From Pristiophorus japonicus (lineage: Eukaryota): 64,000 nt of DNA. The notes beneath the pieces are model-generated. The model saw nothing but the letters and a program-made list of their open reading frames with translations. It made no database searches and had not been told where the DNA came from. A program made the translations under genes and the position numbers. Location: positions 37,758,001-37,822,000 of the forward strand of contig NC_091985.1 in assembly GCF_044704955.1 (NCBI RefSeq), written 5' to 3'. Of this stretch, positions 5,850 through 58,104 are shown piece by piece (the first letter of the stretch is position 1; every line of letters begins with the position of its first letter).

Positions 5850-6670
5850 AATAGGTAAGATGTGACTAGCCGTGTCCCACAGGAATCTGTGTTGGGGACT
5901 CAACTATTCACTGTATTTATTAACGACTTAGATGATGGGATACAGACCACATACTCAAATTTGATGACGACACAAAGAGAGGCGGCATTGTAAGCAGTGC
6001 AGATGGAAGCATAAAATTACATCGTAATAGATAGAGGAAAGAAGTTACGCTACAGCTGTACAAAGCCCTAGTTGGACCACAGCTGGACTACTGTGAGCAG
6101 TTCTGAGCACCACACCTTAGGCAGGATATAATGGAGAGAGTGCAGTGTAGATTTACTAGAATGATACTCAGACGCCAAGGGTTAAATTATGAGGACAGAT
6201 TACACAAACTAGGGTTGTATTCCCTGGAATTTCCAAGGTTATGGGGTGACTTGATCAAAGTTTTCAAGATATTAAGAGGAACTAATAGGGTAGAGAAAAA
6301 TAATTTCCATTGATTGGGAAGTCAAGGACATAGCCTAAAAATTAAAGCCAGACCTTTCAGGAGTGAAGTCAGGAAACACTTCTCTACACGCAAACGGTAG
6401 TAGAAGTTTGGAACTCTCTTCCGCAACTGGCAGTTAAATCGAAGATTAATAGATTTTGTCAACCATAGGTATTAAGGGGATATGGGGCAAATGCAGGCAG
6501 TTGGAGTTAGGTCACAGATCAGCCCCATCCCATCATCATAGGCCGTTCCTTGAAACGAGGATGACTTGCTTCCACACCAAAAAAGGGCGAGTTCCTATGA
6601 TCTCACTGAATGGCGGAACAGGCTCAAGTGGCTAAACGGCCGACTCCTGTTCTCATGGGTCATGTTCTGC
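5850..6670 (+). mobile_element. Degenerate CR1 (RT C-terminus and tail) containing an inverted RTE-type tail at ~6530-6597
   Basis: ERVQCRFTRM...LGLYSLE; tail interrupted by catcatcataggc...gaggatgacttgcttccac. Confidence 0.8.
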
Positions 6671-14692: not shown

Positions 14693-14887
14693 CACATCTG
14701 AACTTTTTGCAACTAGTTTCTTCAGTTTTTTCTCCAGAATATCGTACACTTGCAAAGCAATGTTCAAACCATCTACTTCAGACAGTTTCTCCAAGGCCTG
14801 AACTAAAGCAAAACTTAGTATATTGGAGATCAGCTTCTGTTCCAGGTTTGAGCGCTCTTTTCCAATGACTTGCACGAGATTTCCCAT
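14693..14887 (-). CDS. HEATR1: HEATR1 exon 17 (195 nt): MGNLVQVIGKERSNLEQK...LEKKLKKLVAKSSDV
   Basis: tgcag acceptor, GTAAGA donor, phase 0-0; diverged but positionally homologous (NLKQK, LQKKIKKL). Confidence 0.87.
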
Positions 14888-15051
14888 CTGCAAACAAAGC
14901 AATGAATACAGTCACACTTCTTAGCAACACTGACAGTATTTTATGCTGCTCACTGTGAGGGCCCCCTTTATGTTCCCACCCACTGCCGTAAAACTTAATT
15001 TCAATATCATGAAATTGTATCATAACTGAATCAATCACCTTTGCCCCTTCC

Positions 15052-15395
15052 TTGGGTGCGGGGGGAATGTTCCCGGTGTTGGGTGGATCCGGAGGCGGAG
15101 GGTGGCATGCTCTTGGGATGGGGATGGGCTGTTTGGGGCTGGGATTGGGAAGAGACTTCTTCACTCGGGGAGTTGTTGGCCTGTGGGGTTCCCTGCCGCG
15201 GAGAGTTGTTGATGCCAGTTCATTGGATGTGTTCGAGAGGGAGTTGGATGTGGTCCTTGCGGCTGGGGGGGGGGGGCGGTCAGGGGGGTGTGGAGGGGGA
15301 GGTGCTGGGGTGGGTGATCAGCCATGATCTTGTTGAATGGCGGTGCAGGCTCGAAGGGCAGAATGGCCTACTCCTGCACCTATTTTCTATGTTTC
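15052..15395 (+). mobile_element. CR1 3' fragment with dense A>G substitutions
   Basis: Aligns by eye to CR1 at 57529-57874 with many A's read as G; terminal ~70 nt almost unchanged. Confidence 0.9.
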
Positions 15396-29719: not shown

Positions 29720-32220
29720 CCTTTACTTGGGCAAAATTAGGGTACGATGGAGGAAAGTGAGAAAATGGTGAGGAAGTAGGAAATTGTTTAAAGATGAAAT
29801 AGCTCGGGTACAGTCAGGGTACATTCCCACGAGGGAGAAAAGTTGGGCAACTAAAGTCAGAGCTCCCTGGATGAGGAAACAGACAGAGTGTAAGATGGAG
29901 CAGAAAAAGAGCGTGTATGACACTGGAGTTCAGAAGAATGAGAGGGAATCTCATAGAAACGTTTAAAATTCTGACGGGTTTAGACAGGTTAGATGCAGGA
30001 AGAATATTCCCGATGTTGGGGAAGTCCAGAACCAGGGTCACAGTCTAAGGATAAGGGGTAAGCCATTTAGGACCGAGATGAGGAGAAACTTCTTCACCCA
30101 GAGAGTGGTGAACCTGTGGAATTCTCTACCACAGAAAGTTGTTGAGGCCAATTCACTAAATATATTCAAAAAGGAGTTAGATGTAGTCCTGACTACATGG
30201 GGGATCAAGGGGTATGGCGAGAAAGCAGGAATGGGGTACTGAAGTTGCATGTTCAGCCATGAACTCATTGAATGGTGGTGCAGGCTCGAAGGGCCGAATG
30301 GCCTACTCCTGCACCTGTTTTCTATGTTTTTATGTTTCACTCAGCAGTTTCTGGTGTAAATTAGTGTCTTTGAACTTTAATTTATTCCACTATGGACTTT
30401 TGAAATGGCGGTGCAGGCTCGAAGGGCCAAATGGCCTACTCCTGCACCTATTTTCTATGTTTCTATGTCAGGTTGCAAATACATCTGAGAATCAGGCTAT
30501 ATAGAAAGGTCAGAGGAGACATGAAAAAGCAAATAAGAGGGGCAAGGAGAGAGTATTAGAACAGAATGGCAGCCAATTAAAAGGTAATCCAAAAGACTTC
30601 TATAGGTATATAAATAGTAAAAAGGTAGTATGAGGAGGGGTGGGGCTGATTAGGGACCAAAACGGAGACCTATGCATGAAGGCAGAGGGTATGGCTGAGG
30701 TACTAAATGAGTACTTTGCATCTGCCTTCACCAAGGGTGCTGCTATAGACATAGTGAAGGAGGAGGCAGTGGAGACACTTGATAGGATAAAAATTGATAG
30801 AGTTATTAGAAAGGCTGGCTGTACTTAAAGTAGATAAATCACCAGAAGCGGATGGGATGTATCCTCGGATGCTGAGGGCGGAAATCGCAGAGGTACTGGC
30901 CATAAATCCTCCAAAGATACATGGGCGGTGCCAGAGGTCTGGAGAATTGCAAATGTTGCATCATTGTTCAAAAAAGGCTAGGTGTTTATACTTGGTCGTG
31001 GGGAAGCTTTTAGAAACAGTAATCAGGGACAAAATTGTCACTTGGATAAGTGTGGATTAATTAAGGAAAGTCCGCACAGATTCGTTAAAGGCAAATCGTG
31101 TTTAATCAACTTGATCGAGTTTTTTGATGAGGGGTAACAGAGAGGGTTGATGAGGGTAATGCAGTTGATGTAGTGTACATGGATTTCTAAATGGTGTCCG
31201 ATAAAGTGCCACATAATAGGCTTGCCAGCAAAATTGAAGCCCATGGAATAAAAGGGACAGTGACAATGGTGAACTTTTGTTTTTCAGACTGGATCTAGGA
31301 CCACTGCTTTTCTTGATGTATATAAATGACTTGGACGCGGGTGTACAATTTCAAAATTTGTAGATGACACAAAACTTGGAAGTATCGCGAACAGTGAGGA
31401 GAGTGATAGACTTCGGGAAGACATAGGCTGGTAAAATGGGCGAACGCTTGGCAGATGAAGTTTAATGCAGAAAATGCAGTGAAGTGATACATTTTGGTAG
31501 AAAAAATGGGGCGACAATATATAAACGAAATGTTACAATCCTCAAGTGGGTGTACGAACAGTGGGGGTATATGTGCATACATTGTTGAAGGTGGCAGGAC
31601 AGGTTGAAAAAGCAGTTAAAAAGGCTTATGGGATCCTGGGCTGCATAAGTGTGGACATTATGATAAACCTGTATAAAACACTGGTTCGGCCCCAACTGGA
31701 GTATTGTGTCCAATTCTGGGCACCACACTTTAGGAAGGATGTGAAGGCCTTGGAGAAGGTGAAGAAAAGATTTACAAGAATGATTTCAGGAATGAGGGAC
31801 TTCAGTTACGTTGATAGACTGGAGAAGCTGGGGTTGTTCTCCTGGGCGCAGAGAAGATTGAGTGGAGATTTGATAGAGGTGTTCAAAATCATGAGGGGTC
31901 TGGACAGGGTAGAGAGAAGCTGTTCCAATTGGCAGGAGGGTAGAGAATCAGAGGACACAGATTTAAGGTGATTAGTAAAAGAACCAAAGGCGACATAAGA
32001 AAAAAAATTTTTATGCAGCAAGTGGTTAATATCTGAAATCCACTGCCTGAAAGGGTGGTGGAGGCAGACGTAATTTTATCTTTCAAAAGGGAGTTGGATA
32101 AGTATCTGAAGGAAAGAAATTTGCAGGGCTACGGGGAAAGGGCAGGGCAGTGGGACTAGCTGAAAGTCGATGCGGCCTCGACGGGCCTTCTCCCGTGTTG
32201 TAACCATTCTATGATTCTAT
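29720..32220 (+). mobile_element. Older CR1 ORF2 remnant, interrupted at 29921-30468
   Basis: [38 protein letters not shown]; attctatgattctatg tail. Confidence 0.85.
29921..30468 (+). mobile_element. Chimeric insert: copy of 36758-37224 (CR1 end plus unique flank) followed by a second CR1 tail
   Basis: Near-identical to 36758-37224 including non-CR1 flank; extra tail at 30407-30468. Confidence 0.88.
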
Positions 32221-55129: not shown

Positions 55130-57874
55130 CCCCGTATTCAACATTCAGGAAGGATAGACAGAAAGGAAAAGGAGGTGGGGTGGCGTTGCTGGTTAAAGAG
55201 GAAATTAACGCAATAGTAAGGAAGGACATTAGCTTGGATGATGAGGAGTCGGTATGGGTGGAGCTACGGAATACCAAAGGGCAGAAAACACGAGGGGGAG
55301 TTGTGTACAGACCACCAAACAGTGGTAGTGAGGTTGGGGACAGCATCAAACAAGAAATTAGGGATGCGTGCAATAAAGGTACAGCAGTTATCATCGGTGA
55401 CTTTAATCTACATATTGATTGGGCTAACCAAACTGGCAGCAATGCGGTGGAGGAGGATTTCCTGGAGTGTATTAAGGATGGTTTTCGAGACCAATATGTC
55501 GAATAGCCAACTAGATGACTGGCCATCCTAGACTGGGTGATATGTAATGAGAAAGGACTAATTAGCAATCTTGTTGTGCGAGGCCCCTTGGGGAAGAGTG
55601 ACCATAACATGGTAGAATTCTTTATTAAGATGGAGAGTGACACAGTTAATTCAGAGACTAGGGTCCTGAACTTAAGGAAAGGTAACTTCGATGGTATGAG
55701 ACGTGAGTTGGCTAGAATAGACTGGCAAGTGATACTTAAAGGGTTGACGGTGGATAGGCAATGGCAAACACTTAAAGATCACATGGATGAACTTCAACAA
55801 TTGTACATCCCTGTCTGGAGTAAAAATAAAACGGGCAAGGTGGCTTAACCGTGGCAAACAAGGGAAATTAAGGATAGTGTTAAATCGAAGGAAGAGGCAT
55901 ATAAATTGGCCAGAAAAAGCAGCAAATCTGAGGACTGGGATAATTTTATAATTCAGCAGAGGAGGGCAAAGGGTTTAATTAGGAGGGGGAAATAGAGTAT
56001 GAGAGAAAGCTTGCTGGGAACATAAAAACTGACTGCAAAAGCTTCTATAGATATGTGAAGAGAAAAAGATTAGTGAAGACAAACGTAGGTCCCTTGCAGT
56101 CAGATTCAGGTGAATTTATAATGGGGAACAAATGAATGGTGGACCAGTTAAACAAATACTTTGGTTCTGTCTTCACGAAGGAAGCCACAAATAACCTTCC
56201 GGAAATACTAGGTGACCGAGGGTCCAGTGAGAAGGAGGAACTAAAGGAAATCCTTATTAGGCGGGAAATTGTGTTAGGGAAATTGATGGGAGTGAAGGCC
56301 GATAAATCCCTGGGGCCTAATAGTCTGCATCCCAGAGTACTTCAGGAAGTGGCCCTAGAAGTAGTGGATGCATTGGTGATCATTTTCCAACAGTCTATCG
56401 ACTCTGGATCAGTTCCTATGGACTGGAGGGTAGCTAATGTAACACCACTTTTTAAGAAAGGAGGGAGAGAGAACACAGGTAATTATAGACCGGTTAGCCT
56501 GACATCAGTAGTGGGGAAAATGTTGGAATCAATTATTAAAGATGCAATAGCAGCGCATTTGGAAAGCAGTGACAGGATTGGTCCAAGTCAGCATGGATTT
56601 ATGAAAGGGAAATCATGCTTGACAAATCTTCTAGAATTTTTTGAGGATGTAACTGGTAGAGTGGACAAGGGAGAATCAGTGGATGTGGTGTATTTGGACT
56701 TTCAAAAGGCCTTTGACAAGAGATTGGTGTGCAAAATTAAAGCACATGGTATTGGGGGTAATGTACTGACGTGGATAGAGAATTGGTTGGCAGACAGGAA
56801 GCAGAGAGTCGGGATAAACGGGTCCTTTTCAGAACGACAGGCAGTGGCTCGTGGGGTGCCGCAGGGCTCAGTGCTGGGACTCCAGCTATTTATAATACAC
56901 ATTAATGATTTAGATGAATGAATTGAGTGCAATATCTCCAAGTTTGCAGATGACACTAAGCTGGATCACGGTGTGAGCTGTGAGGAGGATGCTAAGAGGC
57001 TTCAGGGTGACTTGGACAGTTTAGGTGAGTGGGCAAACACATGGCAGATGCAGTATAATGTGGATAAATGTGAGGTTATCCACTTTGGTGGCAAAAACAT
57101 GAAGGCAGAATATTATCTGAATGGCAGCAGATTAGGAAAAGGGGAGGTGCAACGAGCCCTGGGTTTCATGGTACATCATTCATTGAAAGTTGGCATGCAG
57201 GTACAGCAGGCGATGAAGAAGGCAAATGGTATGTTGGCCTTCATAGCAAGAGGATTTGAGTATAGGAGCAGGGTGGTCTTACTGCAGTTGTACAGGGGCC
57301 TTAGTGAGGCCTCACCTGGAATATTGTGTTCAGTTTTGGTCTCCTAATCTGATGAAGGACGTTCTTGCTATTGAGGGAGTGCAGCGAAGGTTCACCAAAC
57401 TGATTCCCAGGAGGGCAGGACTGACATATGAGGAGAAACTGGATCGACTGGGCCTGTATTCACTGGAGTTTAGAAGGATGAGAGGGGATCTCATAGAAAC
57501 TTATAAAATTCTGACGGGACTGGACAGGTTAGACGCAGGAAGAATGTTCCCAATGTTGGGGGAAGTCCAGAACCTGGGGACATTGAGTAAGGATAAGGGG
57601 TAAGCCATTTAGGACTGAGATGAGGAAAAACTTCTTCACTCAGAGTTGTTAACCTATGGAATTCCCTGCTGCAGAGAGTTGTTGATGTTAGTTCATTGGA
57701 TATATTCAAGAGGGAGTTAGATATGGCCCTTACGGCTAAAGGGATCAAGGGGTATGGAGAGAAAGCAGGAAAGGGGTACTGAGGTGAATGATCAGCCATG
57801 ATCTTATTGAATGGTGGTGCAGGCTCGAAGGGCTGAATGGCCTACTCCTGCACCTAATTTCTATGTTTCTATGT
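55130..57874 (+). mobile_element. CR1 ORF2 (APE plus RT) plus 3' UTR, 5'-truncated, several stops/frameshifts
   Basis: GGGVALLVK, IIGDFN, NYRPVSLTS, QHGFMKGKSCLTNL; tttctatgtttctatgt tail. Confidence 0.95.
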
Positions 57875-58104
57875 CACACTTTGGCACATTGAATTGATAC
57901 AATCTATTTCAAGCTTGTTTCATGATCAAAAGTCGGAGAAGAACCCCATTAGTTTTAAGCAGTGGTACCTCAAAGTGTTAGCAAATGAAGAAATGACTGG
58001 GAAAGGATCATATTTTAACAACTAAAACTAAAACCCAAGACCCACTAAATTGTAGCACTGCCTCAGCCCGGCGCACTGCACTGAGGCATTGGATAAGGAA
58101 CACT

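Follow-up and report, generated by a model that had tools for sequence, protein, structure and literature searches.

The window, a stretch of 64,000 nucleotides (C9:37,758,001-37,822,000) from a genome of 5.9 Gb, contains copies of a LINE that we take to be a CR1, a label tested here on the endonuclease and reverse transcriptase domains. The unedited comparator, called the sister copy below, matched Pfam Exo_endo_phos (E 4.5e-6) and then RVT_1 (E 3e-18), that is, an ORF2 with an APE endonuclease and a reverse transcriptase, and traits of CR1-type LINEs (a 3' hairpin, a short microsatellite tail, and variable 5' truncation) were seen. The features considered are the following.

15052..15395, plus strand: the window copy, a 5'-truncated member of a non-autonomous, A>G-hypermutated, CR1-derived family (family positions 511-855), consisting of the 3' CR1 segment only
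15052..15332, plus strand: inherited A>G tract, equivalent to the ORF2 end and 3' UTR of the parent CR1
15333..15395, plus strand: unedited terminal hairpin (predicted; bounded by alignment) and the start of an 8-nt microsatellite tail
55143..57875, plus strand: the sister CR1 copy, unedited and 5'-truncated, with a broken ORF2 and remnants of endonuclease and reverse transcriptase (Pfam and alignments)

Aligned with the sister copy (57529-57870), the window copy shows G at 52 of 95 aligned A's. The other transitions number 6 (T>C), 5 (G>A), and 4 (C>T); the binomial p for A>G versus T>C is 3e-10. Comparison with four more copies within the window gave 28-60 A>G. A first-pass annotation of this DNA had described such an excess within exactly the boundaries over which family homology runs, 15052 to 15395, and its count for a stretch of ~110 nt proved exact (16 A>G among 28 A's, plus 3 T>C and 1 C>T). 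The 5' neighbor bias that it had noticed was also recovered, with edits at 13/14 A's following T, 17/22 following A, 9/14 following C, and 13/28 following G (G versus the rest, p=0.006). The end of the element, said to be almost untouched, has its last A>G at 15332, and the final 70 nt hold 1 A>G among 14 A's.

A probable 65-codon exon with splice-like ends lies at 14694-14888 on the minus strand, ~160 nt from the window copy. No match to it was found in Pfam or Atlas; if it is an exon, the window copy would be intronic and antisense to the host gene. In another CR1 copy of the window (29911-30468), the 3' end is duplicated, with a short G-rich stretch ahead of the duplicate (30271-30468).

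The window copy belongs to a large composite family

A genome search with the window copy returned at least 39 other loci with 92-93% identity over its full length (40 of 2,189 candidates scored). These members have the G pattern in common and differ in their flanks, which are unique, and in their 5' ends; they carry microsatellite tails. Read 5' to 3', long members consist of a 37/38-nt minisatellite array, a hairpin-forming head of 157 nt, ~334 nt of CR1 (the inter-ORF region and the ORF2 start), a deletion, ~375 nt of the CR1 3' end, and the tail. The deletion removes ~2.35 kb of ORF2 and joins ~55155 to ~57510 in the coordinates of the sister copy. The array has 36 units in one member (L063) and reaches ~23 kb in another, on C20.

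A 19-mer spanning the deletion junction had 762 exact matches in the genome and a 25-mer from the 3' end had 1,199, while the reversed controls of both had none. With capture rates of 17/28 and 21/30 copies for the respective k-mers, these counts suggest ~1,250 copies across the junction and ~1,700 overall, a range that we state as ~1,200-1,700. The 59 family copies that were aligned differ by 3.3% from their own majority, and 30 copies sampled by the junction have a median pairwise identity of 93.7%.

The family fits neither of two standard classes. An autonomous LINE has an intact ORF2; here the ~2.35 kb that are missing include the reverse transcriptase, and the remainder reads as glycine-rich text. 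A SINE has a Pol III head derived from tRNA, 5S, or 7SL RNA; no Rfam match was obtained in L063 6600-7800, and a tRNA gene search of four family loci found none, although a head may lie beyond the array. No shared 5' end was seen in the upstream flanks compared.

Three individual cases deserve description. The C20 copy (L064/L127/L133, 61.77-61.80 Mb) sits in a ~650-nt tandem host repeat with ~4 nt duplicated, and its ~23-kb array has either grown since insertion or been copied at full length; as a candidate source of the family this copy was rejected because it interrupts the host repeat. Three copies (L032, L034, and L113; L065 5566-6792) have the same 5' flank, over 1.2 kb in two and at least 400 nt in the third, and different 3' flanks, an arrangement that indicates a secondary source with 5' transduction. 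In L044 (C13:175.977 Mb), the 5' part of a family copy is inverted, as twin priming would give.

The edits appear to have been made in a founder

We compared column majorities of the parent (n=25 and 29 copies) with those of the family, the edited tract being family positions 165-792 of 862. The family differs from the parent by A>G at 144 of 226 A's, against 2 T>C, 5 G>A, and 5 C>T. Within the tract, 144 of 208 A's were changed (69%), and the 5' neighbor again mattered: 30/31 after T, 56/70 after A, 28/43 after C, and 30/64 after G (chi-square p 4e-6). The effect of the 3' neighbor was not significant (p 0.34). Both the strand asymmetry and the 5'-G depletion noticed in the window copy thus hold against a consensus, the check that the first-pass annotation had proposed. 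The changes raised G from 30% to 53% and CpG from 10 to 37, turned the parental reading frame into glycine-rich text, and left 28 nt as the longest run of the founder tract identical to the parent CR1.

The edited sites behave as old, fixed characters. At edited non-CpG sites, A is found in 155 of 6,436 instances (2.4%) across family copies, compared with 191 of 9,366 (2.0%) at parental G's. A single edited site is split, with A in 17 of 51 family copies, and all others are fixed; the 30 copies sampled by the junction alone were all G-rich on both sides of it. The 144 A>G common to all sampled members, ranked T>A>C>G by 5' neighbor, indicate that the founder was edited first and amplified afterwards. 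Of the 57 family edits, the window copy itself carries 55, and at 35 retained A's it shows a single A>G of its own. Among the family copies, retained A's became G at 44 of 3,535 positions versus 28 T>C at 6,517, an excess that could reflect either editing that still goes on at a low level or noise in the alignment of G runs.

Searches for an unedited progenitor of the family gave only edited members: two loci with a junction query tolerating A or G, and all 19 retrieved of 21 matches to head-junction queries. An undeleted version with the family's own edits was sought as well, and the one locus obtained was an independent edited copy. As to the order of deletion and editing, the run of retained A's at the deletion junction is no rarer than four other runs.

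The first-pass annotation had proposed a one-off edited insertion of an active LINE, a claim against which it counted a G pattern common to many dispersed copies. This is what was found, in a subfamily of >1,000 copies, and the claim is abandoned: the G's of the window copy were inherited from an amplified, non-autonomous founder without ~2.35 kb of ORF2. The shared pattern does not refute editing, because neither drift nor gene conversion could produce the strand-specific skew of 144 to 2.

Independent edited copies occur throughout the genome

The search for an undeleted progenitor turned up, instead, an unrelated copy that has 285 A>G within 2 kb. To look for similar insertions outside the family, we used a motif from the reverse transcriptase region, which is absent from the family, with four TA sites forced to G as the edited version. 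Genome-wide, this first motif gave 20 edited-form hits versus 124,744 exact matches of the unedited form, where ~0.02 would be expected at 2% per site. All 20 hits have an A>G excess (23-199 A>G, with T>C 4-28 in most and 1 in one) over differing extents, three of them (L144, L146, and L157) as short or weak tracts. In 29 unedited control copies, the mean A>G was 1.9% and the mean T>C 1.5% (maxima, 8.9% and 8.0%).

The pooled rates in 21 copies, with the motif excluded, were.73,.67,.43, and.30 after T, A, C, and G, respectively; by 3' neighbor they were.57 (G),.53 (A),.42 (C), and.42 (T). These rates were reproduced in the copies found with the third motif, in pair 3, and in the copies from the DNA search described below. 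As 3' neighbors, G and A ranked above C and T in the one-off sets; in the founder the effect fell short of significance. Agreement between edited copies at A sites was only 0.61 in the median and 0.77 at most (162 pairs), so these copies are independent of one another.

A second motif pair, taken further 5' and tightly constrained, gave no edited and no mirror hits, and for the third motif 8 of 8 hits were edited, a figure obtained without a mirror control. A DNA search with one edited copy returned at least 39 other loci, 10 known and 29 new; a locus passed when its A>G came to 20% or more and to no less than four times its T>C. Of the 26 new loci examined, 25 did so, one pair among these 25 being the same locus twice. 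Distinct edited copies thus number at least 55 genome-wide, of which 53 are edited on the sense strand and 2 in an antisense arm. Correction of the 20 first-motif hits by 0.73^4, the probability of an edit at each of the four sites, would give, as a rough estimate, ~70 edited insertions per 125,000 (~1 in 1,800), or about 1 in 1,500-2,000 of those spanning the motif. Editing reached 72% over 470 nt in one single copy (L214) and 73-81% in bins. For the one edited copy tested, no descendant was present among the matches listed, the next best having 86% identity.

Some of these copies have peculiarities of their own. In three independent edited copies (L143, L144, and L145), the 5' truncation falls 886-887 nt from the 3' end, a difference of no more than 1 nt, and the 5' ends of several more lie inside their edited tracts; reverse transcriptase may stall at such places. 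A nested CR1 (L207, C9:95.40 Mb) has 81 A>G in its sense arm and both 45 A>G and 94 T>C in its antisense insert, possibly the result of two editing events on opposite strands. At C13:194.23-194.28 Mb, there are three equal-scoring hits 17-34 kb apart, and the one retrieved (L240) is hyper-edited; this edited copy was probably multiplied by tandem duplication.

Edits follow the arms of predicted RNA duplexes in three source-daughter pairs

The mirror search with the first motif, in which T>C was sought, gave two hits. In both, an antisense CR1 arm runs into a sense 3' end that is unedited, and therefore in these copies, too, the change is A>G on the transcript strand. The junction of each of these daughters was found at exactly one other locus among the matches listed (40 scored). 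The two sources (C8:1.76 Mb and C7:208.39 Mb) are longer, unedited, and differently flanked nests, in which an antisense CR1 has inserted into a sense CR1 that then continues to its 3' end. Relative to their sources, the daughters have 136 A>G at 456 A's and 65 at 153, with 2-3% other changes. The edits extend over the arm predicted to pair with the upstream sense CR1 and follow the transcript strand, not the CR1 coding strand: in the two pairs together, 176 of 329 duplex A:U pairs were edited, compared with 3 of 230 A's in the 3' arm (p 1e-47).

The third pair has its source at C6:19.98 Mb and its daughter, a retrocopy of 6,543 nt, at C22:17.90 Mb. They differ by 360 A>G and 30 other changes, of which 4 are T>C. 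The two arms of an inverted repeat (84% identity) were edited on the same strand, at 145/313 A's in arm A and 134/260 in arm B. Edits were absent from the loop (0/74) and the 3' end (0/140) and nearly absent from a non-CR1 spacer (2/521). The 5' 1.5 kb was edited at 79/527 A's (15%). Its partner is an antisense CR1 just past the 3' end of the source, complementary end to end at 88% and absent from the daughter. The edited molecule was therefore RNA: it was folded and of transcript polarity, and it extended beyond what was copied.

The spared 3' arm, too, has an inverted partner (88-90% identity) in each of the three sources. To account for its sparing, one would have to assume in addition either that a hairpin formed earlier holds this partner within its loop or that copying is limited to free 3' ends. 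The search for a fourth source gave no unique locus, as that junction has matches of at least 92% at 18 other loci. Near the ORF2 end there is a CR1-in-CR1 hotspot with antisense insertions at the same site (for example, C5:124,626,645), including a member of the edited family (L137). Such a hotspot may be a steady source of hairpin transcripts.

The 3' end is mostly spared

According to the first-pass annotation, the edited copy had integrated with its 3' reverse transcriptase recognition tail intact. This was true of most edited copies, 45 of the 50 aligned through the tail having no more than 2 A>G in the last 85 nt, and did not extend to the remaining 5, which have 4-8 there, some of them within the terminal hairpin. 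Most copies thus have an unedited tail, but it is not strictly required. Folded from 15316, the hairpin of the window copy has a predicted energy of -26.6 kcal/mol (z -2.0; 8 of 200 shuffles were as stable). The segment 15333..15395 is likely the site recognized by the CR1 reverse transcriptase. Stringent 3' recognition is described for LINEs of such type in the accessible text of PMC3747384.

DISCUSSION

The reading that best fits the sequences is a recurrent process in which transcript-strand, duplex-confined A>G hypermutation of CR1 RNA is fixed by retrotransposition, with the window family as its amplified case. With regard to the element at hand, we hold it very probable that the window copy is one of ~1,200-1,700 retrotransposed non-autonomous copies and that the 144 transcript-strand A>G of their founder are likely the work of ADAR on a double-stranded CR1 RNA, with the CR1 reverse transcriptase as the likely means of their fixation. 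The ADAR reading of the first-pass annotation therefore survives as to origin, given the strand asymmetry, the 5'-G depletion, and the duplex-following edits of the three pairs; it fails where the edits were supposed to have been made for the window copy.

ADAR is proposed from signature and geometry. A>G was confined to the RNA strand (144 versus 2 T>C in the family, 360 versus 4 in pair 3), with antisense arms following the transcript strand. The 5' neighbors ranked U>A>C>G, T and A changing places by 2 points in two sets and G being the lowest in every pooled set, and in the three source-daughter pairs editing was confined to long double-stranded RNA with about half of the A's converted. 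For ADAR1, the accessible text of PMC11019741 ranks the 5' neighbors U>A>C>G and puts the conversion of long duplexes at 40-50%. APOBEC would leave clustered G>A on the sense strand, whereas the family shows G>A at 5 of 212 G's relative to the parent. For the window family, whose duplex partner and unedited source were not found by the junction and head-junction searches, an ADAR origin rests on the signature that it shares with the source-daughter pairs.

The proposed course of events is as follows. CR1 copies are dense and often nested antisense, and read-through of such nests would yield transcripts with long inverted repeats (84-96% identity in the nests seen). In the paired arms, about half of the A's are changed in the neighbor order of ADAR, and the loops, spacers, and 3' end are spared, a pattern for which this enzyme would be responsible. 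Inosine is read as G by reverse transcriptase. Edited RNAs were then reverse-transcribed from the CR1 3' end and inserted, as their 5' truncation, new flanks, and tails indicate, giving the one-off copies, at least 55 in number. One edited, internally deleted CR1 would have come to lie behind the 157-nt head and the 37/38-nt minisatellite array, and the composite would have been transcribed from a putative upstream promoter and copied in trans by CR1 proteins. The germline timing, the duplex partner of the founder, the promoter, and any benefit of editing are presumed.

Several observations count against this reading: the nonsignificant 3' neighbor effect in the founder, the inverted partners of the spared 3' arms, the empty second motif pair, the three short or weak tracts among the first-motif hits, the reported lack of ADAR1 editing of L1 RNA in HeLa cells (see below), and the editing of the founder (69%), which exceeds the roughly 50% (46-53%) of the pairs. 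This last excess would be explained if ADAR edits had accumulated over successive master copies and not in one founder molecule, since the pairs represent single rounds. This stepwise course would also accommodate the one split site, the small G excess at retained A's, and two members that are nearer to the parent beside the deletion junction. It is made unlikely, while keeping some weight, by single one-off copies that reach the same density (L214 and the bins mentioned above), by the fixation of all edited sites but one, and by the absence of half-edited intermediates among the 30 junction-sampled copies and the 19 head-junction variants.

It is far less probable that the window family is a plain CR1 subfamily, unrelated to the one-off copies, that became G-rich through drift, selection, or GC-biased conversion. 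The subfamily is real, with >1,000 copies, and an unedited progenitor was not found by the junction and head-junction searches. Conversion and drift are strand symmetric, however, and the family has 144 A>G against 2 T>C; moreover, its neighbor order is that of the one-off copies, its frame was wrecked to glycine-rich text, and its changes stop near the tail.

Two further explanations, which we regard as highly improbable and about equally so, place the change in reverse transcription. Error-prone reverse transcription or second-strand synthesis, for instance through nucleotide imbalance with G placed opposite T, has in its favor that every edited copy went through reverse transcription and that the change lies on the plus (second) strand. 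Duplex boundaries would be inaccessible to a polymerase, yet pair 3 shows almost no change in loop and spacer, after which editing resumes in the next arm; editing stops at inversion junctions, and the error would need a partner that is absent from the copied product. Alternatively, in the course of target-primed reverse transcription, an adenosine deaminase could have acted on DNA, either folded cDNA or cDNA in an RNA:DNA hybrid. According to a review, DNA in hybrids can be edited by ADARs, which the authors describe as untested for retroelements (PMC12925331). Deamination of first-strand cDNA would read as T>C on the transcript strand, against 4 T>C and 360 A>G in pair 3; the 5' tract of that pair matches a sequence never copied into the daughter, and the mirror search with hits gave just two, both antisense arms.

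Hardly any credence can be given to the idea that the master was unedited and that each copy arose from a freshly edited transcript. Such a scheme would suit a master lying in a permanent hairpin; it was rejected on the invariance of the edited sites, which are as constant as parental G's (2.4% versus 2.0%), where independently edited copies agree at ~61% of A sites. A sequencing or assembly artefact, hinted at by G-run lengths that differ among copies, has practically no probability. The G pattern, which an artefact would replace by A in the reads, is present in every sampled family copy and in short-read contigs over the G-rich part. Some of these contigs come from the same sample and are not independent; others are from a second sample and from another organism, a single 100-nt contig from the last differing from the G-rich part by 2 letters. 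In one run (X9), coverage of the G-rich part was too slight to indicate absence. No contig spans the whole copy, and two flank contigs reach 30 and 25 letters into the element, below the 31 letters required for bridging. Family matches are tied to element polarity and balanced over contig strands (369/393 for the junction 19-mer and 572/627 for the 3' 25-mer).

RNA editing is normally not inherited. If ADAR acted as proposed, each of these loci seems to preserve in DNA one edited RNA molecule of the germline; three have an unedited source for comparison, and the loci would serve as single-molecule maps of ADAR action and of the folding of inverted-repeat transcripts, including read-through past the element end. 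They would constitute a second deaminase route, beside APOBEC, by which a retroelement sequence is changed in one jump, and one edited product would have founded >1,000 G-rich, CpG-rich insertions. We suggest, tentatively and with more doubt than conviction, that ADAR is a recurrent germline mutagen of LINE-rich genomes able to create mobile elements, and that the rewriting of the founder let it escape CR1-directed silencing and further attack on its double-stranded RNA while keeping the reverse transcriptase handle, hence the >1,000 copies. The mirror-controlled scan can be applied to CR1- or L2-rich genomes (birds, reptiles, and fishes) and to Alu pairs.

Comparison with known systems

The hominoid SVA is a non-autonomous composite of a VNTR and retroelement fragments that is trans-mobilized and 5'-truncated. 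The family resembles it in its composite build, in the proposed trans mobilization, and in having secondary sources with 5' flanks (L032/L034/L113). It differs in the position of the VNTR, which is at the 5' side and extends up to ~23 kb, in its CR1-type tail, and in its hyper-edited core; sequence homology is not expected. Shark and ray SINE/LINE pairs, including HE1/HER1, are described in the accessible text of PMC3747384. The HE1/HER1 SINEs are like the family in their CR1-type LINE 3' end and presumably in borrowing LINE proteins, and the family is distinguished from them in that neither a tRNA or Rfam head nor a fixed 5' end was found at the loci searched.

In full-text literature searches, with subscription literature mostly outside their scope, we found no ADAR-edited LINE copies fixed in a genome, nor a family founded by one; the family may be cataloged without comment in Repbase or Dfam, which lay outside the search. 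The accessible part of PMC5224506 reports no ADAR1 editing of human L1 RNA in HeLa cells. Despite this negative result from cell culture, hyper-edited non-LTR RNA can, on our reading, escape retention or decay and still be copied.

APOBEC-edited LTR elements offer a parallel on the DNA side, as G>A in genomic retroelements is reported in the accessible text of PMC4866542 and PMC2873906. They too show clustered, strand-biased, and motif-biased hypermutation relative to a source. There, however, G>A stems from C-to-U changes on cDNA, whereas here A>G is on the transcript strand and within the arms of RNA duplexes. The screen of 123 genomes in the first of these papers, to judge by its accessible part, covered ERVs only and found other mismatch types very rare (PMC4866542).

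On the RNA side, >35,000 hyper-edited sites in chicken CR1 RNA and 449,965 events in elephant shark brain are given in the accessible part of PMC5625713. The substrate there, double-stranded RNA from neighboring inverted CR1 3' ends, and the 5'-G depletion are the same as here; that editing was seen in RNA reads, whereas ours is in DNA. A further precedent comes from two avian retroviruses, with ~50% A>G in the Rous-associated virus U3 and in an avian leukosis virus inverted repeat (PMC12925331, accessible text). As in the CR1 case, about half of the A's of an inverted repeat became G in an RNA that was later reverse-transcribed. The retroviral examples are single cases; here non-LTR elements are concerned, with at least 55 genomic copies, unedited sources still present, and one product that now numbers >1,000 copies.
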